Of a stretch of DNA of 64,000 bases, positions 11,552 to 64,000 are shown piece after piece. The translations under genes were made by a program, and so were the position numbers. The notes beneath the pieces were generated by a model. The model did no database searches, had not been told where the DNA came from, and worked only from the letters and a program-made list of their open reading frames with translations. Origin of the DNA: Burkholderiales bacterium (GTDB lineage: Bacteria; Pseudomonadota; Gammaproteobacteria; Burkholderiales; WYBJ01); assembly GCA_022841915.1 (NCBI GenBank), contig JALHQN010000016.1:17859-81858 (forward strand). Direction: 5' to 3'. Every line of letters starts with the position of its first letter. Within the stretch, counting starts at the first letter, position 1.

Positions 11552-11789
11552 GGCAGGCCTCCGGATCGAAGATGCGGAATCGCTCGCAAAACTCACACCC
11601 TCTTCGCTGCCGGGCTTTGCCTTCATCGCGTTTCCGGACCCGCGGCGCAGTGTCGGGCATGCGCGGCAAAGCCATCGGCACCGCGTTGCGGTGACCGATC
11701 CGGCGGCAGATATCGCCCGCGCGCAATGACAACGGAGCCCGAGTCGTAGACAATTGGCTTCTTGCCACGTGTGGATGGAGGGGAGCCAA

Positions 11790-13129: not shown

Positions 13130-13130
13130 C

Positions 13131-29505: not shown

Positions 29506-29644
29506 GACACGTCTCCCTGTTTGAGTTGCGAGCAAGCGCCGCAACGTTTCATCGATGCCTCACCACGCGGCCGGATCGCACTCGACGTCGCGGCGCTGGG
29601 CCAGCCGAGATCCTGTCCACCAGCGGCGCGCGCCCGTGGCGACC

Positions 29645-33254: not shown

Positions 33255-34154
33255 ATGATCGACAAGGCATGCAGCTTCGTGCTCGGTGCGCGTGATCCGG
33301 AGATGCGCGAGATCGCCGAGGTGCTCGATGCACACAAGCTCGCGCACGCGTACGCGGCGAGAGGCGCGATGCCGGTGACCGCGCGCACCGCCTACGATGC
33401 CGATGGCGTGGTGCGACTTTCCCGCAGCGGCCGCGGCATACCGATGGTGCTCGCAAGCGACCGGCCCTTGGTGTTCGTCGAATGCACGATGCGTCATCGC
33501 CAGGCGCAACAACGCGTGGATCATCACAATCCCGGCGACCCCGGGTACGACATGCCGCCCGAGCGCTATCTCGAGGGCTCGTCGCTGGGCCAGATCCTGC
33601 GCCTGCTCGATCGGGAGCCGACCCCGACGCAGCACTTGCTGGCCGCCGCGGATCACTGCCTGACTGCGGCGTATCAGGGCGAGTGTCCCGGCGTGGATCC
33701 GAACGAACTGCTGTTTCTGCGGGCATCCTGGCGGGCACGCATGAGCGGGCGCACGCTCGGAGACGTCATCGAGGGCATCCTGCACGCAGCCGCCGAAGTG
33801 CAGCGCAAGTACGATTCGGCGTGCGGGGAGAGCATCTTCGCCGATCCGACCGACGTGCCGCGCGACCTGGCCGAAGGGGGCGCGTATGCCGGGCGGCCCA
33901 TCCGCTATCGCGAACTCTACCCCGGCGGCGAACTCAAGGAGATGCTCAAAGGGGCGCGGCCCGAGCACATCGAGCGCTTCATGGCCGAACACCGGGCGCT
34001 GGGTCGCGAGGTCTACGGCAATCCGCACCGCGGCTATGCCGGCACCTACCTGCCCGGCTACCTCCTTGCCGCCACGGCGCAAGCGCATGTCGGTCGGGAG
34101 CGTCTGCAGGCATCCTGCAATTGCGAACTCCGATCGACGCCACCGTGCGGCTAA
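33255..34154 (+). CDS. Hypothetical protein, unrecognised family
   Basis: 299-aa ORF with strong GC3 bias and an ATG start. I recognise no family. It contains VDHHNPGDPGY and AAADHCL motifs. Its stop overlaps the convergent gene's stop by 3 nt. Confidence 0.55.
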   Translation: MIDKACSFVLGARDPEMREIAEVLDAHKLAHAYAARGAMPVTARTAYDADGVVRLSRSGRGIPMVLASDRPLVFVECTMRHRQAQQRVDHHNPGDPGYDMPPERYLEGSSLGQILRLLDREPTPTQHLLAAADHCLTAAYQGECPGVDPNELLFLRASWRARMSGRTLGDVIEGILHAAAEVQRKYDSACGESIFADPTDVPRDLAEGGAYAGRPIRYRELYPGGELKEMLKGARPEHIERFMAEHRALGREVYGNPHRGYAGTYLPGYLLAATAQAHVGRERLQASCNCELRSTPPCG

Positions 34155-34876
34155 ACCTGCCGCAGGGCCGTCCTCGCCACGTAAACCGTGTTGGTGGCGT
34201 CCCGATGCTGCAATGGATTGGGGAAGGTGACGACATGCGCCTCGCACTGGGGGAAAACGCCGCCGAGCACGGTCATGAATTCCTCGTCCGGGGGATCGTT
34301 CGACCACAGCGCGAAGACGCCGCCCGGATGCAGATGTTCGGCGAGTTGCTTCAGTCCGTCGCCACGGTAGAGCGCAGCATGACTGGCATGCAGCACATGG
34401 CGGGGGGAATGGTCGATGTCCACCAGAATCGCATGAAAACGCCGGGTGAAGTCGCGCGAGTCGATGCCCGGCGAATCGAGCATCGCGAAGAAATCGCCGT
34501 TGACGAACTCGCAGCGCGGATCGGCACATAGGCCGGATCCCAGCGGGACGAGCCCCTGGCGGTGCCAGTCGATGACGGCCGCCAATGCATCGATCACCAG
34601 CAGAGATCTGACCGCGCGATCTTCCAGTACCGCGCGGGCCGTATAACCCAAGCCAAGACCACCGACGACGACATCGAGCGGCCCTGTGCCCGAGGCCGCA
34701 AGGCCGATCCGCGCCAAGGCGACCTCGCCTTCGGTGAACAAGCTCGACATCAAAAACTCGTCGCCGAGCTTGACCTCGTACACCTCGGTGCCGAGCGACA
34801 ACTGCGTGCGCCGACGCAGGCTCAATTCGCCGATCGGCGTCTCGCGGTAGTCGAGTTCTTCGAAATCGATGGTCAT
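34151..34876 (-). CDS. Spermidine synthase-like / class I SAM-dependent methyltransferase-fold protein
   Basis: The Rossmann glycine motif VVVGGLGLGYTA, an acidic loop (VIDALAAV) and ILVDIDHSP are present, resembling spermidine synthase-like proteins. ATG at 34876. Confidence 0.6.
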   Translation of the reverse strand: MTIDFEELDYRETPIGELSLRRRTQLSLGTEVYEVKLGDEFLMSSLFTEGEVALARIGLAASGTGPLDVVVGGLGLGYTARAVLEDRAVRSLLVIDALAAVIDWHRQGLVPLGSGLCADPRCEFVNGDFFAMLDSPGIDSRDFTRRFHAILVDIDHSPRHVLHASHAALYRGDGLKQLAEHLHPGGVFALWSNDPPDEEFMTVLGGVFPQCEAHVVTFPNPLQHRDATNTVYVARTALRQV

Positions 34877-34973
34877 GGCTGCCCTAAAAGAAGTCCTTGC
34901 TCGAAAAGTGAGCACAGCATAAACCGCGCAACGTCTGCGACGCTGCAGCGAACCGTCGTCACGCTTCGTGTTC

Positions 34974-42518: not shown

Positions 42519-42911
42519 TCGGTTGGCCCCGACTGCGGGAAGCAACGCGGCGTCACACAACGATCGGGATGATGCCACCACTGAACGCGAATGCGCGCCA
42601 TGCCTGCCGAAAGCGGCAAGGTTGAAACCTTGCGGCCTAGGCACGAATGCAAGGCCCCCTCACCGGCCACTCGCGATCGGCACCGCGGCGCGCGCGAGGG
42701 TTGCCACGCGCCTCGTACCGCACCGGATTCGAATTTGTATCGCAGTGTGTCAATCCCGGCTACGCAACACGGCGATACCAAACGTCCGCTGCCTGAAACA
42801 GCTTCCTTGCCCGTGGATGCGTTAATCGAGTTGGCGACACAGCGCGACTCTGCCTCGAAGTCGCGATGCCGATCGAGCGCCCGCCACGCTTTCACCCCAA
42901 GGAGAACCTGC

Positions 42912-43634
42912 ATGCTGTGCAAGAGAGCAATTGCAACCACATTCGCTGCGGCGATCGTTTTCTCGGCGAACCCGGTGTTCGCCCAATCCGCCGCCTCCCA
43001 CGCGGGCCCTCGAGCAGACGATACGGGGGGAATGACGAGCCACGGCACGGGACCAGGCATGGGTCATGGGATGGGACGCGGGATGGGGCATGTTCCCGGC
43101 GCCAGCCGTGGCGCGATGCATGGTCCGACCTCGATGCTCACCAAGCAGGATGAACGCTCGTCCAGCGACATGGCACTGGTCATGGATCTGGTACACAGCA
43201 ACGACAAGATCAAGCGCACCGTCACACTGTTGCCAAACGGCATCCGGACCGTCACCGAATCGGATGATCCGAAAGTCGCACAGAACATCCAGGCTCACGT
43301 CGCCAGCATGTCGAGTCGATTGCAGGAGGAGCGCGAGTTCAACATCTTCAGCACCACGCTCCCGGTCATCTTCGACCATGCCAAGAGCATCGACATGTCG
43401 ATGACGATGACCGACAAGGGCGTCATCGTCACTCGCACCACGACCGATGCCCGATTGGTCGCCGCCCTGCAAGCGCACGCGGGCGAAGTGACCGAACTCG
43501 TTCGGGACGGATCGGCCGGCATGCGACGCGGCATGACGGCACGCATGGCCATGGGCCCCGAGGGCCCCCGCGGCGCCATCGGCACCAACGCGCGTCCGGG
43601 CAATCGCACGCAGCCACAGCCGCACGCCCACTGA
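42912..43634 (+). CDS. Secreted Met/His-rich protein with an apparent internal duplication (putative periplasmic metal-binding protein)
   Basis: ATG follows an AAGGAGAA SD. The signal peptide is MLCKRAIATTFAAAIVFSANPVFA-QS. A GMGHGMGRGMGH tract is present. Two related modules occur (...NGIRTVTESDDPKVAQNIQAHV... and ...KGVIVTRTTTDARLVAALQAHA...). The opposite-strand 356-aa ORF looks like an antisense artefact. Confidence 0.65.
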   Translation: MLCKRAIATTFAAAIVFSANPVFAQSAASHAGPRADDTGGMTSHGTGPGMGHGMGRGMGHVPGASRGAMHGPTSMLTKQDERSSSDMALVMDLVHSNDKIKRTVTLLPNGIRTVTESDDPKVAQNIQAHVASMSSRLQEEREFNIFSTTLPVIFDHAKSIDMSMTMTDKGVIVTRTTTDARLVAALQAHAGEVTELVRDGSAGMRRGMTARMAMGPEGPRGAIGTNARPGNRTQPQPHAH

Positions 43635-47718: not shown

Positions 47719-48717
47719 TCATTGAGCCGGGATGTTCGCCTCCTTCACCACCTTGGCCCAACGCTTGACCTCGGCTGCGATCTCGCGCCGGAACTCGTCG
47801 GGTGAATTCGCGATGACCTCCAGCCCCATGGCGAGCAACCGGTCACGGTCGGTGTCCGCCTTCAGGATGCGTCGAATCTCGGTGGCGTACTTGTCGACGA
47901 GCGGCCGAGATATACCCTTGGGGGCCAGGATGCCTTGCCAGTCGAGCACGACGATGTTCGGCACGCCCGCCTCGCCCAAGGTCGGCACGTCGGGGAGCAG
48001 CGGCGAGCGCTGAGCGGACGAGACCGCAAGCGGTCTCAAGCGACCCGACTTGATCAACGGCAGCGACGATGTCGCGGAGGCGAAGCTCATCGAGACGTTG
48101 CCGCCGGCCAAATCGATCATCGCCGGCCCCCCGCCCTTGTAGGGGATGTGGGTCATTTTGACCCCCGTGGTGAGCGCAAAGAACTCGCCGATCAGGTGGG
48201 GCGCTCCCCCAATGCCCGAGTGAGCAAAGGTGAGCTTGCCCGGTGCCTGCTTAGCCTGCGCGATGACATCCTTGACCGTCTGAATAGTCGACTTCACGGG
48301 CACGACCAGCACGTTGCCTACCGACGCCGTCATGGTGACCGGCTCGAAGTCGTTGAGCGTGTCGTAGGGAAGCTTCATCAAGCTCGGGTTCACTGAAAAG
48401 CGCATGCCGGCCAGCATGACCGTATGGCCGTCCGGTGCGGCACGGGCGAGGATCTGCGTTCCGATGACCCCGCCCGCCCCCGGGCGATTGTCGACCAGCA
48501 CTTGCTGACCCCACGCCTCGGTGAGTCTTTGGGCAAGCACCCGGGCCATGCCGTCGCTGCTGCCTCCCGGCGCCACCGGGACGATCAGCCTGACGGGCCG
48601 ATTGGGAAAGGCGGCCCCAGCATCCGTCTGACTCCAGCTCAGCGAACTCGCGCTCGCAAGGAGCAGGGCCGTGACGGTATAGGATCCGGCGCGGAGTACA
48701 TTCTTTTTCGACTTCAT
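47719..48717 (-). CDS. Bug-family (TctC-like) substrate-binding protein
   Basis: A signal peptide is followed by FPNRPVRLIVPVAPGGSSDGMAR. Confidence 0.9.
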   Translation of the reverse strand: MKSKKNVLRAGSYTVTALLLASASSLSWSQTDAGAAFPNRPVRLIVPVAPGGSSDGMARVLAQRLTEAWGQQVLVDNRPGAGGVIGTQILARAAPDGHTVMLAGMRFSVNPSLMKLPYDTLNDFEPVTMTASVGNVLVVPVKSTIQTVKDVIAQAKQAPGKLTFAHSGIGGAPHLIGEFFALTTGVKMTHIPYKGGGPAMIDLAGGNVSMSFASATSSLPLIKSGRLRPLAVSSAQRSPLLPDVPTLGEAGVPNIVVLDWQGILAPKGISRPLVDKYATEIRRILKADTDRDRLLAMGLEVIANSPDEFRREIAAEVKRWAKVVKEANIPAQ

Positions 48718-49123
48718 CGATCACTCCAAATAATCAAAAAGCAAAACTGCCGCAGCTGCTAAAAGCAAGGCTTGGACCATTAGGTGGACACTTCAGCTGC
48801 CCGCGGCAATGCCGTACGTGGAAGAGCAGGAAATTCGACACCTTCCCCCGAACACTCCTGCCGGCAAACGAGACGCAGGCGGCGAACGCCCCCCCCGCCC
48901 CCTACCGGTCGTCAGCTTTGGGTCGAGGATAGCGTCCAAAACGGCGCAGCGCCCGGCCGACAAGTACCTTTTCGGTGCATACGCGGGCCACTGCAACCTC
49001 GATGCGAAGCGGATCGTGCCGCAGACCACCTGGCATGATGCGTGCGTAGGCCGTGACGACGTCACATCCGGCGGTCGATCTCCTGACCATCGCCGGTGCG
49101 TGCCGCCAAGAGCCCCCAACGCA

Positions 49124-50140
49124 ATGATCATGAACATCGAAAGAGTTTCCCATCCACGGATGCGGACCGTGTCTGCCTCGGCGACAGCATGCCTGCTTGC
49201 GACACTGTGCCTCCCAGCACTCCCGTCATTCGCCACCACGCCCTACCCGACCAAGCCCGTTCGCCTGGTGATCCCTTTCCCGCCAGGCGGATCGACCGAC
49301 TTCGTCGGGCGCATCATCGCACAGAAACTTTCCGAATCGCTCGGGCAGCAGGTCATCGCAGACAATCGCGGCGGCGCGGGAGCCGCCATCGGGACGGCAA
49401 TCGTGGCGCGCGCCATCCCGGATGGCTACACACTGCTTCTGGGCAGTTCGTCAGGGCTGGTAACCAATCCGCTGATGAACCCCAAGCTCCCCTACGATCC
49501 GTTCAAGGACTTCGACCCGATCATCCGGCTCAACCGCAATGCCCAGGCGCTGGCCGCGACACCGACGCTGCCGGCCAGTAACGTGAAGGAGCTGATTGCC
49601 CTCGCCAAGGCCCGCCCAGGCAAGCTCAACATCGCCTCGCCCGGCATAGGCTCTTCGAATCATGTCGGTGCCGAGATGTTCAAATACTTGTCCGGCGTCG
49701 ATATCGTGCATGTACCGTACAAGGGTTCGGGTGCAGCGACACTCGACCTCATGGCGGGCAACATCCAGTTGCAGCTCACCAGCCTCCCGACCGTCATGCC
49801 GCACTACAAGACAGGCAAACTGAAGATCCTCGGGGTGGGAAGCGCGCAGCGGTCGGCCCTGCTGCCCGAAGTGCCCACGATCGCCGAATCAGGCCTGCCG
49901 GGATACGACGACACCGTGTGGTTCGGTCTGTTCGCTCCCAAAGGCACTTCGGCCGGCGTCGTCTCGCGCATCAACGAACTCGCCACTAGCGCCCTCGCCA
50001 CCACCGAGGTGACCCAGCGCTTCCTCTCCCAGGGCGCGGAACCGTTCCCGAGCACGCCGGCGGAACTCACCCAATACATGCGTACCGAGCACGAACGCTG
50101 GGGGCGCGTGATCAAGGCAGCGAAGATCCGACTGGAGTGA
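49124..50140 (+). CDS. Bug-family (TctC-like) substrate-binding protein
   Basis: The hallmark sequence is YPTKPVRLVIPFPPGGSTDFVGR. The start could be ATG 49124, 49130 or 49160. Confidence 0.85.
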   Translation: MIMNIERVSHPRMRTVSASATACLLATLCLPALPSFATTPYPTKPVRLVIPFPPGGSTDFVGRIIAQKLSESLGQQVIADNRGGAGAAIGTAIVARAIPDGYTLLLGSSSGLVTNPLMNPKLPYDPFKDFDPIIRLNRNAQALAATPTLPASNVKELIALAKARPGKLNIASPGIGSSNHVGAEMFKYLSGVDIVHVPYKGSGAATLDLMAGNIQLQLTSLPTVMPHYKTGKLKILGVGSAQRSALLPEVPTIAESGLPGYDDTVWFGLFAPKGTSAGVVSRINELATSALATTEVTQRFLSQGAEPFPSTPAELTQYMRTEHERWGRVIKAAKIRLE

Positions 50141-50312
50141 CCAAACCGCAGAGGCCGCATGCCGCCCGACGAACGGCGACCGGCAACCGCTGCGACAGAT
50201 CATGGCCGCGCCCCCAGAACAGACCACCCGGAACCCCAACGCCGCCAGGGCTCGCGCCTGCGGTGGCATCGATGCTCCGGACCGACCGAGCCCGTCAACC
50301 TTGCATCTGCCC

Positions 50313-51293
50313 ATGAACATGCCGACATCCTTCCTCAGAGCGCTCCCCGTGCTTGTGCTGCTCGCCCCCATGGCGGCCGTCGCAGCGTCCCTCAACTATC
50401 CGTCCAAGCCCATACGGCTGATCGTGCCGTTCCCACCCGGCGGCGGCACGGACATCGTCGCACGCCTCGTTCAGGAGCGATTCTCTCAAGCGATCGGTCA
50501 GCAGGTGATCATCGACAATCGACCGGGTGCCAGCGGCATACTCGGCAGCGAGCTTACCGCCAGGGCGGCACCGGATGGCTACGTGCTCGGCATGGGCACC
50601 TCCAACACGCTGTCCGCGAATCCCAACATGTTTCCCAAGCTCTCCTACGATCCGAGACGCGACTTCGCCTTGGTCACGCAAATCGCGACTCAGCCGAACA
50701 TGCTCGCCGTCCATCCTTCGCTCCCCGTCCGGGACCTGAAAAGCCTACTGGCCCTGGCGCGTCAACGGCCCGGACAGCTCAATTACGCTTCATCCGGCAA
50801 CGGCAGTTCGCACCACATGTCGGGCGAGTTGCTGAAAATCCTGGGAAAGGTGGATGTCATGCATGTGCCTTACAAGGGCACGGGAACCGCGATCGCGGAC
50901 ACCATCGGCGGGCACATCGAGTTGGTATTCGCCGGCACCGCCGCATTGATGTCTCACGTCAAGGCCGGCAAACTGCGCCCGATCGGCGTCACCTCGGCCA
51001 AGCGCGTCGCCGCCTTGCCCGATATTCCGACCCTCGCCGAGGGCGGGCTTCCGGGCTACGAAATCACGGCTTGGCACGGCATGATCGCCCCCGCAGGAAC
51101 GCCAGCGGCGATCGTGAGCCGCGTGAGCGAAGCAGTGAGCAGCGTGCTGGCGCACGAAGACATCAGGAGCCGGTTTGCAGTCCTGGGTGCCGAGCCGGTC
51201 GGCTCGACACCCGAGGCGTTCACCCGATTCCTTCATGCCGACATCGAGCGTCTGGGCAAACTGATTCGCGCGGCCAACATCAAGGCCGACTAG
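50313..51293 (+). CDS. Bug-family (TctC-like) substrate-binding protein
   Basis: The signal peptide MNMPTSFLRALPVLVLLAPMAAVAA is followed by YPSKPIRLIVPFPPGGGTDIVAR. Confidence 0.9.
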   Translation: MNMPTSFLRALPVLVLLAPMAAVAASLNYPSKPIRLIVPFPPGGGTDIVARLVQERFSQAIGQQVIIDNRPGASGILGSELTARAAPDGYVLGMGTSNTLSANPNMFPKLSYDPRRDFALVTQIATQPNMLAVHPSLPVRDLKSLLALARQRPGQLNYASSGNGSSHHMSGELLKILGKVDVMHVPYKGTGTAIADTIGGHIELVFAGTAALMSHVKAGKLRPIGVTSAKRVAALPDIPTLAEGGLPGYEITAWHGMIAPAGTPAAIVSRVSEAVSSVLAHEDIRSRFAVLGAEPVGSTPEAFTRFLHADIERLGKLIRAANIKAD

Positions 51294-54426: not shown

Positions 54427-55199
54427 GCGGCGGATCCCGCCGGCTGGCGCATGGCGCGATAGATGCGCTCGCGCACGGCAAGAAACTCCGGGTGCAGCCG
54501 GTTATCGCTACCATCGCGCGGCTGCGGCAGATTCACCGCGAACTCCTCGAACGCACCCAGGCCGCCTTTGAGCATCAGAAAGATCCGGTCGCCCAGGAAC
54601 ACCGCCTCGTCGATGCTGTGCGTGACGAAGACGATGGTGCATCCGGTCTGCGCCTGTATGCGCAGGATTTCCTCCTGCAAGGTTTCCCGAGTCTGCACGT
54701 CGACCGCCGCGAACGGCTCGTCCATGAGCATGACACGAGGATTCGCCGCCAGCACCCGAGCCAAGCCGCACCGCTGACGCATGCCGCCCGACAGCTGATA
54801 CGGATAGCGATCTTCGGTGCCCGTGAGCCCCACCAGCGCAGCCATGCGGTCGGCGACTTCGAGTTGCTCCCGGCGGGGCCGCCCGGCGCAGCGCAGATGA
54901 AACGCGATGTTCTCGCGCACCGTCATCCAGTCGAACAGCGCGTACGACTGAAACACGACCCCTCGGTCCGGGCCCGGCCCGGCGATCTCCCGGCCCGAGA
55001 TCAATGCGATGCCGGCACTCGGCTGCAGAAAGCCCGCAACGATATTGAGCATCGTGGTCTTGCCGCAGCCGGACGGCCCGAGCACGGCGACGATCTCGCC
55101 TCGCTTGATCGAGAACGAGAGCTCCGAGAGCACGCGCTGTCCGCCATAGTCCAGGCTGACCCGATCGAACTGCAGGACCACCTCAGGAGCGCTCGTCAT
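54423..55199 (-). CDS. ABC transporter ATP-binding protein (NitT/TauT family)
   Basis: Walker A GPSGCGKTT, signature LSGGMRQRCGLARVL and Walker B VMLMDEPFAAVD are present. Confidence 0.9.
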   Translation of the reverse strand: MTSAPEVVLQFDRVSLDYGGQRVLSELSFSIKRGEIVAVLGPSGCGKTTMLNIVAGFLQPSAGIALISGREIAGPGPDRGVVFQSYALFDWMTVRENIAFHLRCAGRPRREQLEVADRMAALVGLTGTEDRYPYQLSGGMRQRCGLARVLAANPRVMLMDEPFAAVDVQTRETLQEEILRIQAQTGCTIVFVTHSIDEAVFLGDRIFLMLKGGLGAFEEFAVNLPQPRDGSDNRLHPEFLAVRERIYRAMRQPAGSAA

Positions 55200-55235
55200 T
55201 GCGCAAATTCCACGCTCGTCCTTCGCGCCGTGCCC

Positions 55236-56252
55236 CTACCGTTTCTCGGCTGCCAGCACGTCCTGAAGCGGACGCGTATTGAAGAGGCGCGACCAGTCTG
55301 CCGGCGGCGCCGAGATCCGCTTCTCCCCGACGAGGAATGCGCCGATCCCCTGAAGATGCTTCATCAGCCGTGAATCAAGCTCCCGGCCCGGAGGCCCCAT
55401 GAACTCCGCCGTCAGCAGCGCCTCGAAGCTCGGGTGACTGGCCGACTGCCGCTCGATCAGGGCATCGAACTGCTCCGGCGTCTGATTGACCCGCTTGGCC
55501 TCGAACTGGCGCACGGCGCGTGCATCCTTCGCATACGCCGCCTGAGCTTCGCGCCAGGCCTTCAGAAAGGACTGCAGCGCCTGCGGACTGGTCTTGGACA
55601 GCGACTGCTGCGCGACCCAGATGCCGCCCGTCAACGTGCCGATGCTGCGCGTGGTCGCGATCACGCGACCGCCCGAGGCCTCGATGACGCCGATGTTGGG
55701 CTCCCAGGTGAAGGCCGCATCGATCTGCCCGGCCGCGTAGGCGGGAGGCATGTTGGCTGGCGACAGATTCACCAAAGTGATGTCCCCTTGCTTCAGACCG
55801 GCCTGTGTGAGTGCGCGCAACAAGTGATTGTGGCTGGTCGAGCCGACCGAGGCGCCCACGCGCTTGCCCTTGAGTTCGGCGACCTTCGTCACGCCGGAAG
55901 CCGGATTGACCACAAGGCGCACGTTGGTGAAGTCGAGCCGCTCCATCATGATGATCTCGATCGGCATGCCGTTCGAGTAGCCAGTGACAGCGGGCACCTC
56001 GCCCATCCAGGCCATGTCGATCTCGTTGGCCGCCAGCGCGGGCAGCATGGCAGGGCCGGCAGGAAACGGAATCAGGCGCAGGTTCAGATTGTGTTTCTCG
56101 AACAGCTTGGTGTTGATCGCGTACATGAGCAACACATTGATCTCGCCGCTTTGAAAACCGACGCGCAGCGGCGTGCTCTGAGCGTGTGCAATTGGCGTGA
56201 TCGCAAAGAACGTGGTCACTGCGAGTATGGCTGAAGCAAGCATCCTGAGCAT
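55236..56252 (-). CDS. ABC transporter substrate-binding protein (NMT1/THI5-like, SsuA/TauA-type)
   Basis: A signal peptide ending in AHA-QS and an NMT1-like fold pattern are present. It is the first gene of the binding protein-ATPase-permease unit. Confidence 0.8.
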   Translation of the reverse strand: MLRMLASAILAVTTFFAITPIAHAQSTPLRVGFQSGEINVLLMYAINTKLFEKHNLNLRLIPFPAGPAMLPALAANEIDMAWMGEVPAVTGYSNGMPIEIIMMERLDFTNVRLVVNPASGVTKVAELKGKRVGASVGSTSHNHLLRALTQAGLKQGDITLVNLSPANMPPAYAAGQIDAAFTWEPNIGVIEASGGRVIATTRSIGTLTGGIWVAQQSLSKTSPQALQSFLKAWREAQAAYAKDARAVRQFEAKRVNQTPEQFDALIERQSASHPSFEALLTAEFMGPPGRELDSRLMKHLQGIGAFLVGEKRISAPPADWSRLFNTRPLQDVLAAEKR

Positions 56253-56521
56253 GGCGGTCGCCCTCGTGTCGACAGAGAACCTGTCATTACAGCGTCTCGA
56301 AGCAAGGGACATACCACACGCGCTCCAGACGCATCGAGAGCGAACTAATCACCGCATCCCACTGCCGCGCACCCCGCCGTAGTGCATCAGCGCGGCCCGA
56401 TGCTCCAGGACCGTGCGGCTGTCGACCGCGCTCCGCTGGAGAAGCGCCGCCGCTTCCAATGGCATGGACCTTGCTAAAACTCGCGGGCCGATAACCTGTC
56501 ATGACAGCACGAGGATCGAGG

Positions 56522-57313
56522 ATGCTTGCAGTCGCTCACAATTCACCGCCGCTCTATGCCCGAGTGCGCGACAGCTTGCGCGCGGAGATCCACGCAGGCC
56601 GATATGTCGATGGCGGTCCGATGCCTTCGGAGGCTGTGCTGGGCCAGCGCTTCAACGTCAGTCGCATCACCGTGCGCCAGGCCCTGAGCGATCTGCAGAG
56701 CGAAGGCCTGATCTACAAGGTCAACGGCAAAGGCTCCTATGTCGACGCGCCGAAAGTGCAGCAAAGCCTGCAGCGGCTGGAGGGCTTCGGCGAAGCGATG
56801 TCTCGCCTCGGCTTCGAGAGCACCAACCGGGTAATTCGAAAGCGCACGGTCCCGGTACCTGCAGCCGTGGCGCCGCGGCTCGCGCTGCCCCCCGGCAAGC
56901 CTGTCACCGAACTGGTCTGGCTGCGGGCCCTGGATGGCGCGCCCTTCTGCTACGAGATCTCCTATCTGCCTCTCGACATCGGGGCCTTGCTGCCGGCAGC
57001 GAAGTTGGCAAATCGCGACATGTTCGCGATTCTCGAACAGGACCACGGCTTTCGCCTGGGCAATGCCGAGGTGAGCATCGGTGCGGTGCTGGCCAACCGC
57101 ACCCATGCTCGCCATCTTCGCACGCGCATCGATCAGCCCTGCCTTCGCATCGAGCGCCTCACCCGTTTGCAGAGCAATCGGCCGATCAACTTCGACTATC
57201 TGACTTTCCGGGGCGACGCATTCCAGTACCGTCTGACCATCGAACGCCAGTACGTCGGATTGAACGAGTCGACCCAGGCGAGTACCCCGAGAGTTGCGCG
57301 CCGCGCAGCTTAG
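56522..57313 (+). CDS. GntR-family (HutC/UTRA subfamily) transcriptional regulator
   Basis: The winged HTH reads LPSEAVLGQRFNVSRITVRQALSDLQSEGLIYKVNGKGSYV, followed by a UTRA-like C-domain. It is divergent from the ABC operon. ATG 56501 is an alternative start. Confidence 0.85.
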   Translation: MLAVAHNSPPLYARVRDSLRAEIHAGRYVDGGPMPSEAVLGQRFNVSRITVRQALSDLQSEGLIYKVNGKGSYVDAPKVQQSLQRLEGFGEAMSRLGFESTNRVIRKRTVPVPAAVAPRLALPPGKPVTELVWLRALDGAPFCYEISYLPLDIGALLPAAKLANRDMFAILEQDHGFRLGNAEVSIGAVLANRTHARHLRTRIDQPCLRIERLTRLQSNRPINFDYLTFRGDAFQYRLTIERQYVGLNESTQASTPRVARRAA

Positions 57314-57341
57314 CGTATCGACTCACCACCAGGAGATGGTC

Positions 57342-58334
57342 ATGAATGCAGGATCAGTACTTCTCAAGCAGGTATCGCTGTGCGCCCTTGCGGCGCTAGG
57401 CTTGCTCTTCGCAGCGAGTGCGCTCGCGCAACAACCAGCGACGGTTCGACTGGCGCAGAACCTGTCTCCGATCTCCGGAGTAGCCATCGTCGCCAAGCAG
57501 CGCGGTTTCTTCGACAAGCACGGCCTGGAGGTCGCCGTGAGCAATTTCACCACGGGGCGTCAGGCGCTCGAAGCAGTCATGGCCGGCGGCGCCGACATCT
57601 CGACCGTCGCCGAGGCCCCCATTACGGCCGGCGCGATGGCCAAGCAGCGCATGGCGCTGCTGGCGCGAATCAACTTTTCCGATGTGAAGACGCTCACCGA
57701 CACTTCGGATCGGATCGCCAAGGCGTCCGATCTGAAAGGAAAGCGCATCGGCTATGCAGCGGGAACCGGCAGCGAGGTCTATACGATGACGCTGCTCAAG
57801 CAAGGCGGCCTGACGCCTGCAGACGTGACCCTGGTCAATCTGCGTCCGCAAGACATGGTGTCGGCGATCGTCAAGGGCAGCATCGATGCCATGAACATCT
57901 GGGAGCCGCACATCTCCAATGCCCGCAAGCTCCTCGGCGAGAAGGCCCGCGAACTCGACACCAAGGGCGTCTACGCGGAGACGTTCAACATCGTCACCAC
58001 GCAGGACTACCTCAGCAAGAACCCGGCGCCGGTCCAAAGGTTCCTGCGCGCGCTGATCGATGCCCATCAATGGATCCGAGCCAATCCCGACCAGGCCATC
58101 ACGGTGATCGCCGAAACCGTCGGCATGAAGCGAGACGACTTCGCGCCGCTGTGGGGCGACTACAACTACGATGTCGTGCTCGATGAGCAGGTCTTCGCCG
58201 TGCTGCGCACGCACGCTCAGTGGCGCCTCGACACGAAGAACGCCCCGTCCGGCGCCACCATGCCGGATTTCCGCAGCGTGGTCTTCCCCGAGCCGCTGCG
58301 GTCCATCGCACCGGACCGGGTTCGCATCAAGTAG
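57342..58334 (+). CDS. ABC transporter substrate-binding protein (NMT1-like), second system
   Basis: ATG lies 6 nt after an AGGAG SD. The signal peptide ends in ALA-QQ and the body is NMT1/SsuA-like. Confidence 0.8.
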   Translation: MNAGSVLLKQVSLCALAALGLLFAASALAQQPATVRLAQNLSPISGVAIVAKQRGFFDKHGLEVAVSNFTTGRQALEAVMAGGADISTVAEAPITAGAMAKQRMALLARINFSDVKTLTDTSDRIAKASDLKGKRIGYAAGTGSEVYTMTLLKQGGLTPADVTLVNLRPQDMVSAIVKGSIDAMNIWEPHISNARKLLGEKARELDTKGVYAETFNIVTTQDYLSKNPAPVQRFLRALIDAHQWIRANPDQAITVIAETVGMKRDDFAPLWGDYNYDVVLDEQVFAVLRTHAQWRLDTKNAPSGATMPDFRSVVFPEPLRSIAPDRVRIK

Positions 58335-58350
58335 TCACGGGAACCCGGGC

Positions 58351-59118
58351 GTGATCGGATTCGAGCAGAACCCGCGTGCCGTTCTCGTAGCGCGCCTCGC
58401 ATCGGTGCCGGTCTTCCTGCTCGCCTGGGAACTCATCGTCCGCTCCGGCATCGTCAATGCCGCCCTGTTCCCGCCGCCGTCGGCGGTCGCACTCGCACTC
58501 GTGGCGTACGCGTCAGACGGCCCTTTGTTGCTCGATTTGGCCTGGAGCGTATCCCGCGTCGCCGTCGGATTCTTCAGCGGCGTCGCGGCCGGCATTCTGC
58601 TCGGCATCCTGACCGGAACCTTTCCCGTGGTCTCCGGCGCACTGGCCCCCATCTTCCAGATGCTGCGCCCGATACCCCCGATCGCCTTCGTGCCGATCGT
58701 GATCGTCTGGTTCGGGCTGACCGAGCTGGGCAAATGGTTCCTCGTCTTCTGGGGCGTGTTTTTTACCGTTTGGATGTCCGCCCATCTCGGTGTTCAGCGC
58801 GTCGGCGAAACCCTGCTACGCGCAGCCCTTTCGCTCGGCACGAGTCAGCGCAACCTGCTGCTGGCGGTCGTTCTCCCTGCCTCGCTACCGGTGATCTTCG
58901 TCGGCGTGCGCACAGCGGTGGGCATCTCTTTCTACACGCTGGTGGCCGCCGAACTGGCCGGCGCATCCTTCGGCATCGCCTATCGACTGGAGGTCTCGCA
59001 GCAGAACATGCAGGTGGCCCAGATGATGGCAGGGCTCGTGATGCTCGGACTGATCTCGTTCACCGCCGATCAACTCTTCGGGAAGTTGTCCCGACGCATC
59101 GTTCACTGGAAGGAATGA
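58351..59118 (+). CDS. ABC transporter permease (NitT/TauT family), second system
   Basis: GTG start. The TM-rich protein carries the EAA loop AALSLGTSQRNLLLAVVLP. No cognate ATPase gene follows. Confidence 0.8.
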   Translation: MIGFEQNPRAVLVARLASVPVFLLAWELIVRSGIVNAALFPPPSAVALALVAYASDGPLLLDLAWSVSRVAVGFFSGVAAGILLGILTGTFPVVSGALAPIFQMLRPIPPIAFVPIVIVWFGLTELGKWFLVFWGVFFTVWMSAHLGVQRVGETLLRAALSLGTSQRNLLLAVVLPASLPVIFVGVRTAVGISFYTLVAAELAGASFGIAYRLEVSQQNMQVAQMMAGLVMLGLISFTADQLFGKLSRRIVHWKE

Positions 59119-59251
59119 CCATTCAGAGCGCAGCCCTTGCTGATCGCGCATTCGCAGCGCGTTTGCTTACTCGGTTCAGCCACCTCTCGCCCCAGCAGTG
59201 CGTTGACGCCGCACGCGTCCCCATCAATGCCGACAGTGCCCGGATCGATCG

Positions 59252-60661
59252 ATGCTCAGCCTAGACATCACCACGCTGCACGCCGGTTATCGCAACGGCA
59301 CCCTCACGCCGACGCAGGTCATCGAGGAAGTCTATCGCCGCATCGAGGCACGAGGCGACGACCACGTCTGGCTGAGCCTCGTGCCCCAGCGCATCGCAGT
59401 CGAGCGGGCGCAAGCACTCGAGGCCCGCATTCCCCCGCGATCCGGCCCCGACAGTCACCCGCTCTACGGGCTGCCCTTCTCCGTGAAGGACAACCTCCAT
59501 GTCGCCGGCATGACCACGAGCGCCGCCTGTCCGGCGTTCTCGCACGTGGCGAAGGTCACAGCGACCGCAGTCGATCGGGCACTCGATTCGGGCGCGATCC
59601 TGATCGGCAAGACCAACATGGATCAATTCGCCACGGGCCTGGTCGGGATACGGTGTCCGACCGGATATTGCCGCAATCTGTTCGATCCCGACTACATCCC
59701 CGGTGGCTCCAGTTCGGGCGCGGGCGTTTGCGTCGGCGCAGGCTTGGTGAGCTTCGCATACGGATCCGACACCGGCGGCTCGGGTCGTGTTCCGGCGGCA
59801 ATGAGCAACGTCGTCGGATTCAAGCCGACCCCCGGCGTGATCAGTGTCGCCGGCTTCGTCTACGCCAATCGCAGCATCGACGTCTGCCCGATCTTCGCAC
59901 TGACCGTCGACGATGCGTATCGGGTGTTCGAAGTCGTCCGGGGCTTCGATCCTGGCGACGATTTTTCACGCCCCGAAGCCGGCGACTATGACGTGTCGGC
60001 GCGCGACTTCGCCGCATTCAAGTTCGGCGTCCCCTCGGCCGAGCACCTGAATTTCTTCGGCGACGTCGCGCAGGCAGCCGCGTACCGGGCATCGATCGAG
60101 CGCCTTGCCGCGATGGGCGGCACGCCGGTGGAGATCGACTTCGCCCCGTTCACCGAGCTCGGCCGCATGCTGTTCAGCAGCCCTGCGCTGGCGGAGCGGC
60201 TCGTCGACCTGGAAGCCTTCCTGGAACATCATCTGGAGGACTTGCATCCGACCACGCGGACGGTTCTTTCGAGCGCTCGCCACTTCACGGCCACGGACGC
60301 CTATCGCGAGCAGTATCGAATGCAGCGCCTGAAGCGCGCCGTTCATGCACAGATGGCCCAATGCGACTTGCTCGCGCTTCCGACCACAGGGACGATCTAT
60401 CGCATCGCCGAAGTCGAAGCGGATCCGGTCCGTCTCAATGCGAACAACGGCTACTACACGTACTTCGCCAACCTTGCCCACTTGTGCGCCATCTCGGTCC
60501 CGGCGAGTTTCCGCCCCGACGGCCTGCCGTTTTCTATTTGCCTGGTAGCACCGCCACTCCAGGAAGGCGCGTTGCGCGGCATCGCTCGGCGCTTTCATGC
60601 TTCGAGCGGATTGCCTGCCGGAGCAACCGGCGCCGCCGTGGCCCCCATGTACGACCGGTAA
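59252..60661 (+). CDS. Amidase-signature enzyme (allophanate hydrolase-like N-domain)
   Basis: The amidase signature stretch GGSSSGAGVCVGAGLVSFAYGSDTGGSGRVPAA contains the Ser-cisSer-Lys triad context. The protein is 469 aa. Confidence 0.85.
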   Translation: MLSLDITTLHAGYRNGTLTPTQVIEEVYRRIEARGDDHVWLSLVPQRIAVERAQALEARIPPRSGPDSHPLYGLPFSVKDNLHVAGMTTSAACPAFSHVAKVTATAVDRALDSGAILIGKTNMDQFATGLVGIRCPTGYCRNLFDPDYIPGGSSSGAGVCVGAGLVSFAYGSDTGGSGRVPAAMSNVVGFKPTPGVISVAGFVYANRSIDVCPIFALTVDDAYRVFEVVRGFDPGDDFSRPEAGDYDVSARDFAAFKFGVPSAEHLNFFGDVAQAAAYRASIERLAAMGGTPVEIDFAPFTELGRMLFSSPALAERLVDLEAFLEHHLEDLHPTTRTVLSSARHFTATDAYREQYRMQRLKRAVHAQMAQCDLLALPTTGTIYRIAEVEADPVRLNANNGYYTYFANLAHLCAISVPASFRPDGLPFSICLVAPPLQEGALRGIARRFHASSGLPAGATGAAVAPMYDR

Positions 60662-61069
60662 TCCCCGACGCTTGCAGCGCCAACGAGCGCAGAGGATCGG
60701 CCGCAGTCGCGAAGGCGACATACAAAAGCCCTGAGACGCCCTGGAACGCCAGGTGCGACACTTGGCCGCAGCTCGTCGGCGCCCCCGGTCGCTTCGCATT
60801 GAGCATCGGCGCCGGCCTGGCCGGCACGCTGCTGCTGGTTGCATGTGCACCCTGAAGCGACGCGCCGATGCACGGGACCGAGCGTGAGAACGGGCTCTGA
60901 GCCCTCTCGACTGGGCACGGATGATCACGCAAGAACAATACTTGCAGACGGCGCCGGTCATCGCCCCCGAGCAGCGCGCCGAGCGAATCCTGCATCCGTG
61001 AAGCGCAAAGCCTCTGCGATGGGTCTGCGGTCCGTCGAGAAGTCCGCGACGGCCTGCGAACGACCGGCC

Positions 61070-62317
61070 CTAGCGCGCGAAACGCTCGGCCCGGTAAGGC
61101 GTCGGATCCACGAAGGGTTGCTCGCCCGTGGCCATCTCGGCGATCAGCCGCCCGGTCACCGCGCCCAACGTGAACCCTTGATGGGCATGGCCGAACGCGA
61201 ACCACATATTGGGGTGGCGCGGCGCCTGACCGATGACAGGCAGCATGTCCGGGGTGCAGGGCCGGGCGCCCATCCAGGGTTCGGCATCCACGCGCTCGGC
61301 CAGCGGAAACAGTTCTCGCGCGGCGGGCTCGGCACGCTCGAGTTGAACGGGTGTCGGTGCGGCGTCACGCAAGGCGAACTCCACCCCGGTGGTGAGGCGC
61401 ATGCCGCGAGCCATGGGCGTCAGGCAATAGCCTCGTTCGCTGTCGGCGATCGGGCGGTTGAGCACGGCCTCGCCCTGCGCGCGATAGTGCATGTGATAGC
61501 CGCGCTTGACGGCCAGCGGCAGATCGTAGCCGAGAGCCCGAGTCACCCCGTCGGACCAGGGGCCGAGCGCGATGACGACCTTGCCGGCATCGATCGGCCC
61601 ATGGGCGCCATCGACCCGCCAACCGCTGCCGTTCTCTGTCAGCGTATTCGCATCGCCTTGCACGAACTGACCGCCGAGCGACCCGAAGCGCCGCAAGTAC
61701 GCCAACGCGAGCGCCTGCGGATCGCCAACGGTGGTCGGCTGGGTCCAATGCAGGCCGCCGACGAGCACGGACGACAAGTGAGGTTCGGCTTCCTGAAGCC
61801 CGCGCGCATCGAGCGCCCGAAAGGCGACCCCGAAGGCGCGCTGCGCACGCTCGGCATCCGCGAAGCCCGCATCGCGCTTCTCGGCGGTGCGATAGACGCG
61901 GATCCAGCCATCGCGTCGCAGCAACCCCGTCGCCCCCGACTCCTGCGCCAGCGCATCGTGCTCGGCGACGCAGTGCTCGATCAGGCGCGCATAGCTGCGG
62001 GTGACGTCCCCGTAGCGCTTGGGGTGGGAATTGCGCCAATAGCCCCACATGAAGGAGGCGATGCGGGGCAACGCCGCGAGATGATAGCTGGCGTCGATGG
62101 AACGATTGCGAGCGTAGCGCATGATCACCCCGAACTCCTGCGGGAAGACATGCGGATTCACGGCCTCGCGCTGAATCATGCCCGCATTGCCGAACGAGGT
62201 CTCTTCAGCCGCCCCGCGCTTATCCACCAGCACCACGGCGTAACCGCGCTTCTGCAGATGCAGTGCGACGCACACGCCCACCATGCCGGCACCCAGAACC
62301 GTGAAGTCTGCTTTCAT
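61070..62317 (-). CDS. FAD-dependent oxidoreductase (DadA-like D-amino-acid dehydrogenase family)
   Basis: The N-terminal dinucleotide fold VLGAGMVGVCVALHLQKRGYAVVLVDK is present. The protein is 415 aa and DAO-family-like throughout. Confidence 0.85.
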   Translation of the reverse strand: MKADFTVLGAGMVGVCVALHLQKRGYAVVLVDKRGAAEETSFGNAGMIQREAVNPHVFPQEFGVIMRYARNRSIDASYHLAALPRIASFMWGYWRNSHPKRYGDVTRSYARLIEHCVAEHDALAQESGATGLLRRDGWIRVYRTAEKRDAGFADAERAQRAFGVAFRALDARGLQEAEPHLSSVLVGGLHWTQPTTVGDPQALALAYLRRFGSLGGQFVQGDANTLTENGSGWRVDGAHGPIDAGKVVIALGPWSDGVTRALGYDLPLAVKRGYHMHYRAQGEAVLNRPIADSERGYCLTPMARGMRLTTGVEFALRDAAPTPVQLERAEPAARELFPLAERVDAEPWMGARPCTPDMLPVIGQAPRHPNMWFAFGHAHQGFTLGAVTGRLIAEMATGEQPFVDPTPYRAERFAR

Positions 62318-62843
62318 GATCGCTTTTTTTCAGTTTTCACTTCTGTGACGACCATCGCCCGTCGTCTCCGAACCAGTCGCTTGCGTGCGCGATCGCGGGC
62401 GCTCGAACCCTGAACACCACGCACCCGCCGGGCTGTGGAGACTCAACGGACAGCCAGCCGGACGCATCGTGTTCCTAGAATAGCAGGCAAAGAACGACTG
62501 TCGGCATTCGAGCGCCATCGTCGCACCGCGCCGCGCTGCCAGCTGAAGCAAGACCGAGACCATCCCGCATGCGCGCCGGATGCATCGGACAACCCTGCCT
62601 CGCTCCCGGACCATGGCCTCTCGCGCCCCGACTCGACTTCGGAATGCGCCAACGTAGGATGACCGCCCACGACCCGAGGCGGTAGACTCTTCTTGCTGCG
62701 GTCGGTTTCGAGTTTTCCGTCCACGAACTCGCTGAGCCGCTGCCCGCGAGTCGACACGCGCTTCAGGTCGACCACGCTATCCGGGCGAAGACGGCAATCG
62801 CAGCGAAGGTTCGGTCACAGGACATCGATCATCCGGAGGCAGC

Positions 62844-64000
62844 ATGACTACCTATCGAGTCGTCTATCCGCTCGGGCGCAAAGCGCGCCGGAGCACCAGC
62901 AGCAAGCCACGTCCCCGGACACTGGACGGCATGACGATCGCGGAGCTCTCCAATCACAAGTTCGATTCCGAGTTCACCTTCCGCTCGATCGAGCAGGCCA
63001 TCCTGAAACGCCATCCCGGTGTCAAGTTCGTGCCGTTCGAAACGTTCGGCGACACCTACGGCCCGCGCGAATCGGAGGTCATCCGCGACTTGCCCGAAAA
63101 GCTCAGGCTGCACGAAGTGGACTTGGTGATATCAGGCAACGCAGGTTGAGGGAGCTGCACCGCCGCGAGTTCGCGTGCAAGCATTGCAGCTGAAATGGCC
63201 GGGCTGCCGACTGTGACGGTCGCCATCGGAGAAGGATTCGCCAAATCGGTCAAGGCGATCGGCAGGCAATCTGGGGTCGATCTCAAGGTCGCCGTCTACC
63301 CGGGTGTCATCTCGACGCACGAACGCCCCACGGTCGCGAAGAACATCGACGAAGTGCTCGCGGATCAGCTCGTGGCGCAGCTGACAGCCCAGAGCGAATC
63401 GTCGGAGTTCGCGCCCTTCGAAGGCGAACCCGGCGAGCGGGACATCGTCTTCACCGGCAGCTTCGAAGCCGTCAACGAGCACTTCCAGAGGCAAGGATGG
63501 AGCGATGGGCTGCCCATCGTCCCGCCGACAATCGAGAAGGTAGAAGCCTTCTTGCGTTACACCGACCGCACGCCCGAGCAGGTGCTGGGCATCATGCATC
63601 CGAGTCTCGCCGCCGCGAGCGTATGGAACGTCGCCGTGACCGGCGTCATGGCCGGATGCCGGCCCGAGTACATGCCGGTGCTGCTCGCGATTGCCGACGT
63701 CATGGCCGACCCCGACTACGGCCTCAAGCATGGAGGAAGCACCCCCGGCTGGGAGGCGATGATCATCGTCAACGGACCGATCCGGGAGCAGCTCGGTCTC
63801 GACTACGGGCAGGGCCTGCAGCGTCCGGGGAACCAGGCGAACACGAGCATCGGACGCTTCTATCGCCTCTTCGCCCGCAATATTCCCCGCTTTCTGCCCG
63901 GCTCCACCGACATGGCCACCTTCGGCCAGATGTTCCGTGCCGTCGTCGCGGAGGACGAAGCTGCTTGTCGCGCCATGGGTTGGGCCCCGCTGCACGTGAC
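62844..64000 (+). CDS. Candidate selenoprotein with a U-G-S-C motif (in-frame TGA 63147-63149); the 3' end runs beyond the window
   Basis: ATG lies 5 nt after a GGAGG SD. The 101 codons end ...VDLVISGNAG, then TGA-GGG-AGC-TGC (U-G-S-C). The same frame stays open for the remaining 851 nt with coding-like codon usage (...TAASSRASIAAEMAGLPTVTVAIGEGF...GLPIVPPTIEKVEAF...MAGCRPEYMPVLL...). If read conventionally, this is a 101-aa ORF plus a second ORF from ATG 63195. Confidence 0.65.
63154..63190 (+). promoter_or_regulatory. Candidate bacterial SECIS element for the UGSC gene
   Basis: The outer stem is GCUGCA (63154-63159) / UGCAGC (63185-63190). The inner stem is GCCGCG (63162-63167) / CGCG-U-GC (63172-63178, with U63176 bulged). 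The apical loop AGUU (63168-63171) lies about 20 nt after the UGA. Confidence 0.5.

Follow-up and report, generated by a model that had tools for sequence, protein, structure and literature searches.

A probable selenocysteine codon inside a UGSC fusion gene of a Burkholderiales bacterium, and its relatives across bacterial phyla

The stretch of DNA studied here, 64,000 nt from a Burkholderiales bacterium (contig JALHQN010000016.1, positions 17,859 to 81,858; below, the window), ends within a gene that very probably encodes a selenoprotein of the UGSC family, in which selenocysteine (Sec, U) is the first residue of a U-G-S-C motif. An open reading frame (ORF) of 101 amino acids, started by ATG, terminates in TGA, and, as an earlier reading made from the letters alone (the sequence-only reading) had pointed out, the same frame continues without a further stop up to nt 64000 (Table 1). 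With the TGA read as U the product becomes ...HEVDLVISGNAG-U-GSC-TAASSRASIAAEMAGLPTVTVA..., with the residues VDLVISGNAG preceding U. The GC content at third codon positions (GC3) in this frame is 0.79 upstream and 0.81 downstream of the TGA, which confirms that a coding-like composition persists past it, and the two other forward frames have values of 0.65 and 0.48. The part of the gene lying beyond the window was recovered from a contig (L002; related loci are cited by L numbers and database proteins by P numbers) that is 100% identical to window positions 55053-64000 (8,948 nt) and extends 3.3 kb further. In it the frame closes at a stop that corresponds to 64542-64544 in window numbering, so that the full-length product has 566 amino acids (aa).

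Table 1. Features of the putative selenoprotein gene, its surroundings and related loci (window positions unless a locus is named; CDS, coding sequence; SECIS, Sec insertion sequence)
Feature	Position	Strand	Basis or remark
Shine-Dalgarno sequence GGAGG	62835..62839	+	4 nt upstream of ATG 62844; read from sequence
Putative selenoprotein CDS, residues 1-385 of 566	62844..64000	+	Frame open across TGA; CDS truncated by the window end
UGSC domain, aa 6-181	62859..63386	+	Pfam PF24696
UGA, probable Sec codon (U102)	63147..63149	+	Aligned TGA/Cys codons in homologues
Cys105 of the U-G-S-C motif	63156..63158	+	Cys105 in most copies; absent from U-G-S-S variants
Candidate SECIS, complete two-tier structure	63153..63191	+	Folding; lower stem 63153-63159 pairs with 63185-63191
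Candidate SECIS, upper stem-loop	63162..63178	+	Folding; 6 bp, bulged U63176, apical loop AGUU at 63168-63171; kept in the subfamily
Internal Met118 codon, probable false start of the 449-aa 'gene' in Sec-blind calls	63195..63197	+	AAT (Asn) in relatives
C-terminal domain, start (aa ~197-566, ~370 aa)	63432..64000	+	Conservation over 97 C-domains
Shadow ORF, 287 aa, not a gene	63132..63995	-	GC3 0.65; homology evidence all on the + strand
Allophanate-hydrolase-type amidase	59252-60661		
FAD oxidoreductase, D-amino-acid-dehydrogenase-like	61070-62317		Divergently transcribed
selA, selB and tRNA-Sec beside the fusion gene	L006 7507-15324; L011 3432-11814; L024 10010-16620; L033 5233-11731		
Example of a UGSC-less C-domain paralogue	L023 11749-12984		

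In public annotation the gene is divided, just as had been expected of a caller blind to Sec. On the identical and the 93%-identical contigs ENA and Logan list the 101-aa ORF as 'UGSC' and, after it, a 449-aa ORF without a family, and the nearest database proteins (at most 96% identity, about 450 aa; for example, P0001) start at MAGLPTVT, the first Met after the UGA, and cover about 70% of the query. This annotation amounts to a two-gene explanation, in which the UGA is the true stop of a 101-aa UGSC fragment and the 449-aa protein has a start of its own at the internal ATG. Such arrangements do occur, as some distant relatives are truly split into a UGSC gene and a following separate C-domain gene (L068, L072, L077, L081 and L083), and C-domain paralogues without a UGSC part exist. 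However, the 101-aa product would stop at the invariant catalytic position and lack half of its Pfam domain, and even the split relatives keep the in-frame TGA and run 70-100 residues past it. The internal ATG has no Shine-Dalgarno-like motif upstream, and four of five subfamily relatives have Asn in its place (AAE-N-AG and not AAE-M-AG; L040, L042, L045 and L048), so that the two-gene model lacks both a conserved start and a Shine-Dalgarno sequence; homologues ending at the TGA before an independent downstream gene, the arrangement that the sequence-only reading had set against its own proposal, are thus not what is found at this locus. Across the 15 codons from the TGA to the false start, comparison with L001, L040, L042, L045 and L048 gave 4-6 synonymous versus 0-3 non-synonymous codon changes, and this stretch, which is conserved as protein, evolves under purifying selection. 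We consider two separate genes very unlikely. It is highly probable that a single gene of 566 aa starts at the upstream ATG, that its UGA encodes Sec and that a SECIS hairpin follows the UGA within the coding sequence.

A scan of one genome per species returned no fewer than 600 related stretches. From these, 80 loci were retained, and the 566-aa product was aligned to all 80. The codon aligned with the UGA was TGA in 75 and TGC or TGT in 19 of the 94 homologous copies, and the Cys or Sec looked for across position 102 was thus present. The Sec forms occur in Alpha-, Beta- and Gammaproteobacteria, Acidobacteria, Methylomirabilota, Actinomycetota, Chloroflexi and Thermodesulfobacteriota with identities as low as about 29%, and nearly all of them have a single TGA which, when read through, gives an ORF of 560-600 aa. 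The Cys forms come mainly from gut and rumen anaerobes, where the motif is C-G-L-C, and additionally from Curtobacterium. Three full-length Cys proteins (P0111, P0114 and P0116; 585-607 aa, 99% coverage) have Cys exactly at the UGA position, in the context VGA-C-GSC-TP. The in-frame UGA is therefore aligned with Cys or Sec, and the frame is conserved on both sides of it. Among 24 diverse UGSC domains the only invariant positions are the Sec/Cys, the Gly that follows it and one more Gly, and four Sec-containing relatives read U-G-S-S (or U-G-S-S-A/T) at this site (L068 10304, L072 6265, L073 10052 and L081 7316).

As TGC differs from TGA by a single base and Cys-type homologues exist, a Cys-type gene might have been inactivated by mutation, or its codon miscalled in assembly. 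However, assemblies made independently from five or more sequencing runs (L001-L005) have the same TGA, as do 75 copies from different phyla. The downstream frame is also intact and under purifying selection, with 8, 5 and 36 substitutions between the window and L001 at codon positions 1, 2 and 3, respectively, and the Sec-specific hairpin described below goes with TGA and not with TGC or TGT. A pseudogene or an assembly error is in our view exceedingly improbable.

Sec-type genes were found in several copies in two metagenome-assembled genomes. The Chloroflexi genome JACPQD01 (L031, L035, L053 and L075) has 11 or more Sec-type genes, either UGSC or UGSC-fusion, of which several are arranged in tandem, with three consecutive genes in L075 (7905-13356) and four within 16 kb in L031 (4300-20300). 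The betaproteobacterial genome CANJQI01 (L012, L038, L040 and L060) has four Sec-type genes of different subfamilies. This expansion of selenoprotein paralogues in JACPQD01 and CANJQI01 is striking.

Bacterial SECIS elements have been described by a loop of 3-9 nt with G in the first two loop positions, usually followed by G or U, a spacing of 16-37 nt, an upper stem of 4-16 bp and a minimum free energy of at most -7.5 kcal/mol (PMC13188914). The hairpin of the window resembles the consensus of bSECISearch in lying inside the coding sequence, in its 4-nt loop with G in second place followed by U, in its 6-bp upper stem and in the 18 nt between the UGA and the beginning of the apical loop. The two-tier hairpin with a bulged U and an AGUU loop, which the sequence-only reading had compared to the bacterial SECIS model, was borne out both by folding and by these constraints, and its position and loop are conserved across subfamilies. 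In the upper stem, 63162-63167 pair with 63172-63175 plus 63177-63178, and the G and U of the loop are at +23 and +24, respectively (numbered from the U of the UGA), as in fdhF. The upper hairpin has an energy of -7.0 kcal/mol when blunt and -8.5 kcal/mol with dangling ends, and the two-tier structure reaches -16.3 to -17.5 kcal/mol with pair probabilities of 0.70-0.75. The energy threshold is passed when the whole element is considered (-16.3 kcal/mol), and the upper hairpin is borderline.

Several observations count against Sec decoding at this site and must be weighed. The blunt upper hairpin just misses the -7.5 kcal/mol rule, passing only with dangling ends or the lower stem, and when the rule is applied to it the site of the window fails the automated constraint test. 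In Escherichia coli fdhF the bulged U is U17 on the 5' arm of the hairpin, and in the window it lies on the 3' arm. The fold of a 64-nt window around the hairpin is not unusually stable compared to dinucleotide shuffles (z = +1.03), the stretch being rich in GC. Additionally, the 50 annotated ORFs of the 64-kb window include no selA, selB or selD, and no tRNA-Sec is found there. Finally, the UGSC family is still uncharacterised in reviews up to 2026 (PMC9312934; PMC13188914), and no member has experimental data (PMC13188914).

Because the stability of the fold is no better than chance, the significance of the hairpin rests on comparative tests. In 69 of 75 distinct Sec sites the apical loop of the minimum-free-energy hairpin lies at +21 to +26 and in the remaining six at +27 to +32, and G-U occurs within the loop in 72 of the 75, with G at +22 to +25 in most. 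The mean energy of the region from +10 to +40 was -13.6 kcal/mol at the Sec sites versus -7.3 kcal/mol at 599 in-gene controls (p 1e-32), and -7.2 kcal/mol at 15 Cys-type sites (p 6e-8 compared to the Sec sites). When the codons were resampled with the peptide kept, the Sec sites proved more strongly folded than the recoded sequences (mean z -1.18, p 2e-12), unlike the controls (-0.14) and the Cys sites (-0.27). A strict automated test of the four published constraints was passed by 56/75 Sec sites, 2/15 Cys sites and 61/599 controls.

The loop and its position are identical to those of the window in L001, L040, L042, L045 and L048, and the lower stem is retained in close relatives only, with a different sequence in L048 and L045. 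Among the subfamilies the stem sequences are wholly different (GCCCGC/GCGGGC, GUCGUGG/CCACGAC, CCGGCCGC/GCGGCCGG and GGCUGGU/ACCAGCU). The stem register also varies by subfamily (i+j = 47 to 50), so the columns are not homologous and no cross-family SECIS alignment or covariance model could be made; unlike the consensus of bSECISearch, no single covariance model would fit the whole family. Covariation was hence counted within one subfamily. In the most variable subfamily it was 0.331 versus 0.125 in shuffles (none of 500 reached 0.331) and at most 0.147 in slid controls, and compensatory double changes were seen in three of seven stem pairs. In the largest subfamily the stem core hardly varies, being fixed by the codons of a conserved Pro-Ala...Arg-Ala. 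When the window was scanned with Rfam at gathering thresholds, only a tRNA was matched and nothing at the hairpin.

The single tRNA of the window is that for Cys. In four related loci (L006, L011, L024 and L033) a tRNA-Sec is found no more than 5 kb from the homologous gene, these being four of the 15 tRNAs in all loci, and in L011 it starts 6 nt past the stop codon of the UGSC-fusion gene. The neighbouring ORFs there are selA (560 bits, cutoff 268) and selB (267 bits, cutoff 242). The linkage of sel genes and tRNA-Sec to the fusion gene implies that the UGSC-fusion protein is a main client of the Sec system there. For the source organism of the window we infer Sec insertion, having observed the single frame, the Sec/Cys pairing, the conserved SECIS, the domain homology and the gene linkage in relatives.

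The gene is a member of the already described UGSC selenoprotein family and no new kind of element. UGSC-containing selenoproteins (Zhang and Gladyshev) have been in the literature since 2007-2008, and in the Global Ocean Sampling metagenomes 255 Sec and 21 Cys sequences were counted, commoner in non-marine samples (PMC2398784). The gene shares with that family the U-G-S-C motif, the existence of Sec/Cys pairs with Sec in excess (75 vs 19 here) and the SECIS after the UGA, and residues U102-G-S-C105 agree with the literature definition (U-G-S-C, UxxC). Fusion of UGSC with a conserved domain ('UGSC/Unknown_1') was also reported in 2008 (Fig. S1A of PMC2398784), and 'Unknown_1' is likely to be the C-terminal domain described here. 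The Pfam family PF24696 'UGSC' matched with 83.7 bits (gathering threshold 25, E 2.2e-23, model positions 2-171 of 172), as it did in 24/24 diverse relatives, and the candidate UGSC-type selenoprotein proposed at the outset has thus found its family. The name 'UGSC family (seleno)protein', which the sequence-only reading had given for RefSeq, does exist (NCBIfam NF041046, an equivalog), but its rule would not apply here, as the protein scores 40.8-43.4 bits against a cutoff of 125. The NF041046 profile has about 147 residues, whereas the present protein is a 566-aa fusion of a distinct subfamily (GNAG-U-GSC-TAASSRAS). Judged by these profile scores, it is a divergent fusion-type relative of the proteins of about 150 aa that NF041046 models, outside that equivalog. 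In the literature searched, to which access was limited, we found no report of a GrdB/PrdB relationship, a non-thioredoxin fold, an operon with a thioredoxin-reductase-like (TrxR-like) gene or a paralogue, selA-selB-selC linkage or the size of the C-domain family.

The C-terminal domain, which the sequence-only reading could not recognise, had no match in Pfam, NCBIfam or the Protein Data Bank (PDB), neither by sequence nor by fold. A profile of the whole protein gave no match to PDB sequences at E up to 10. The AlphaFold2 model of the domain is fairly confident, with a predicted local distance difference test score of 79 and a predicted template modelling score (pTM) of 0.76, and Foldseek searches of the PDB with the full model and the C-domain model gave no significant match, the best for the C-domain having a probability of 0.38 and a template modelling score of 0.21. 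A class-I fumarase among the Foldseek matches (E 7e-3, probability 0.38, root-mean-square deviation 18.8) was dismissed as noise. Over 97 C-domains, the signature in the part covered by the window consists of W219-x-DGLP-xx-PPT229 (63498-63530), N-x-VMAG-C272-x-P (Cys at 63657-63659), G311-P312 and N333-xxx-GR338, and further conserved positions are N346, E370 and W380. The domain family has 4,295 representatives in a library at 50% identity, 2,693 of them at E up to 1e-10. The representatives are Sec forms that gene callers have cut short, intact Cys forms and some far longer fusions. Among the long relatives, P0147 (1254 aa), P0151 (1226 aa), P0218 (986 aa), P0235 and P0247 match the C-domain once or twice, and these are apparently further fusions or duplications of it.

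The gene borders a catabolic cluster with an esterase, an ATP-binding cassette transporter with NMT1-type binding proteins and a GntR/UTRA regulator, together with the amidase and the FAD oxidoreductase of Table 1, and past the window end a convergent ADP-forming acyl-CoA ligase follows. The context of amidase and oxidoreductase is common only to the 93%-identical L001, and apart from TctC receptors no conserved partner genes were found for the subfamily of the window. Over the 75 loci included in the neighbour analysis, the looser recurrent neighbours are TctC, tripartite ATP-independent periplasmic (TRAP) transporters, CoA-transferases, short-chain dehydrogenases/reductases, TauD and Rieske (GbcA-like) oxygenases and MmgE/PrpD. 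TctC ('Bug') receptor genes are also frequent in the window, where five were found in 64 kb (23378-24355, 28528-29544, 47719-48717, 48809-50140 and 50202-51293); such a number is usual for Burkholderiales and in line with L042, L045 and L048, the closest genome relatives of the gene.

A tighter association was seen with a UGSC-less paralogue of the C-domain (about 400-413 aa), which lies directly downstream of the fusion gene in L010, L013, L014, L021, L022, L023, L024, L026, L027 and L043 (for an example, see Table 1). A gene for a TrxR-like flavoprotein with a CxxC motif occurs in 10 loci (in L043, for example, at 13071-13988), and in the largest subfamily the fusion gene, the paralogue and the TrxR-like gene form a contiguous operon in that order (L022, L024, L027 and L043, and also L021). 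The paralogue may be a heteromeric partner of the fusion protein. Together, the fusion, its splitting in other lineages and the operon linkage argue that the UGSC and C-terminal domains would work as one enzyme, and the neighbourhoods point to a thiol/flavin reductase as the putative electron donor in at least one subfamily.

What this enzyme might do is indicated by the remote kin of the UGSC domain. When 24 diverse UGSC domains were scanned with the NCBIfam profiles, GrdB was matched by 14 (best E 5e-5) and PrdB by 11 (best E 2e-5), while TIGR01918 and GrdF were each matched by nine and GrdH by five. Both groups have U-x-x-C, and the offset of the PrdB alignment places U102 at about profile position 149-151, that is, near U151, the catalytic Sec of Clostridioides difficile PrdB (PMC11229817). 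The UGSC domain thus appears to be remotely related to the Sec-bearing part of GrdB/PrdB, which are the 'protein B' subunits of glycine, betaine, sarcosine and D-proline reductases (Stickland-type), as a resemblance and not as membership. A thiol/thioredoxin-type recycling partner encoded close to the gene in some loci also recalls the reductant requirement of the Grd/Prd systems (GrdB, GrdF, GrdH and PrdB; TIGR01917, TIGR01918 and TIGR04483). In contrast to these, the partner of the UGSC domain is an unrelated fused domain and not a pyruvoyl subunit, and the hosts of the family are mostly aerobic Proteobacteria and not Stickland-fermenting anaerobes.

Previously, a thioredoxin-like fold and a redox role have been predicted for UGSC proteins (PMC2398784). 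With the gene and its Sec decoding unchanged, the UGSC domain would on this view be a generic thiol/selenol-disulfide oxidoreductase of the thioredoxin-like type, serving as an antioxidant or acting on protein disulfides, and its similarity to GrdB/PrdB would have no mechanistic meaning. The U-x-x-C motif and the TrxR-like neighbour, which fits a thioredoxin-type relay, agree with such a role. However, none of the 24 UGSC domains was matched by thioredoxin-family hidden Markov models, and in a Foldseek search with the AlphaFold2 model (pTM 0.80) the top matches were Rossmann/flavodoxin-like (FtsZ N-domain, azoreductase, SIS), all of them weak (E >= 1e-3), and the 50 matches listed did not include a thioredoxin. 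The domain is therefore predicted to be a Rossmann/flavodoxin-like alpha/beta domain and not a thioredoxin-like one, contrary to the prediction of 2008. A sequence search of the PDB with the UGSC profile gave chance-level matches only, and no PrdB or GrdB structure. Additionally, the resolving Cys is absent from some Sec forms, and the obligatory large conserved domain amid catabolic genes (amidase, FAD dehydrogenase, CoA ligase/transferase, Rieske, TauD, transporters) suggests a metabolic enzyme. A generic oxidoreductase is thus rather unlikely, and the thiol-redox context that the U-x-x-C motif had suggested from the start stands as one possibility only, since the second Cys is missing from some Sec relatives and the remote kin, GrdB and PrdB, are not thioredoxins.

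Taking Sec decoding and the resemblance to GrdB/PrdB together, the following mechanism can be outlined. SelB·GTP·Sec-tRNA(Sec) would bind the upper hairpin of the mRNA by its A-G-U-U loop inside the coding sequence, and the UGA would then be decoded as Sec. The selenolate of U102 would serve as catalytic nucleophile or redox centre, and its small-molecule substrate would be bound by the C-domain, in a site that may be formed by the motifs W-x-DGLP-xx-PPT, VMAG-C272 and N-xxx-GR. The reaction would leave a selenenyl-sulfide with C105 or another Cys, to be reduced again by a thiol system, which in the largest subfamily could be the TrxR-like flavoprotein encoded in the operon. By analogy with PrdB/GrdB, we tentatively place the U102 selenolate at the centre of a reductase-type reaction with a selenenyl-sulfide cycle re-reduced by a thioredoxin-type system, and offer this as a possible more than a probable account. 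It is speculative that the near-invariant Cys272 is a second redox partner or a processed cofactor. The neighbourhoods suggest that the substrates might be nitrogenous organic acids or betaines, and from the adjacent genes N-methyl or D-amino acids, ureido or carbamoyl acids and short acyl-CoA precursors are further candidates.

Going further, the fusion could be a self-contained selenoenzyme of new fold with a Grd/Prd-like activity, which in aerobic environmental bacteria would reductively cleave a C-N or C-X bond of a betaine or a small nitrogenous acid. Sec would serve as the nucleophile, the pocket of the C-domain (possibly with Cys272) would replace the pyruvoyl subunit and the TrxR-like flavoprotein would supply the electrons. 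We put this forward as a long shot.

The proposed chemistry has to be weighed against the following. C105 is not conserved family-wide, and as U-G-S-S Sec forms exist, a selenenyl-sulfide inside the motif cannot be universal. The subfamily of the window has neither the C-domain paralogue nor a TrxR-like neighbour. The window protein itself scores 14.6-16.5 bits with PrdB, the cutoff of which is 300, and the cutoffs of the GrdB/PrdB families (65-602) are not reached. No PrdA/GrdE pyruvoyl, Gly_reductase or GrdA family was found among the genes of the window or the recurrent neighbour clusters.

Some other features of the window deserve mention. A molybdenum hydroxylase cluster of three genes on the + strand (11754-15407), of the CO-dehydrogenase/xanthine-dehydrogenase type, consists of the FAD, small and molybdenum-cofactor-binding large subunits and is by its sequence no selenoprotein. 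A large ORF at 79-2553 (+), the N-terminus of which is probably truncated by the window start, combines FAD-oxidase C-terminal, 4Fe-4S dicluster, CCG and DUF3400 domains and resembles a glycolate-oxidase/D-lactate-dehydrogenase-like fusion. Three ORFs with high GC3, at 33255-34154 (+), 34151-34915 (-) and 42591-43634 (+) (299, 254 and 347 aa), are without a match in Pfam at E <= 1e-5 or 1e-6. Opposite the FAD oxidoreductase gene lies a GC-rich shadow ORF (60839-62413, +), which, like the one opposite the selenoprotein gene (Table 1), would enter a naive list of ORFs.

The locus and thousands like it are filed publicly as two hypothetical proteins, of 101 aa and about 450 aa, and joining the two restores a selenoprotein of 566 aa. 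The UGSC family is an abundant orphan, the function of which is made testable by clues from its context. The GrdB/PrdB homology, the obligatory link to the C-domain, the recurrent operon and the co-location with selA, selB and selC could be followed up in carriers that can be cultured, among them Vineibacter terrae CC-CFT640 (L043) and Actinomycetospora aeridis OC33-EN06 (L058). In case the fusion would prove to be a self-contained selenoenzyme of this kind, an orphan selenoprotein family that ranks among the most abundant in aquatic metagenomes would gain a function.

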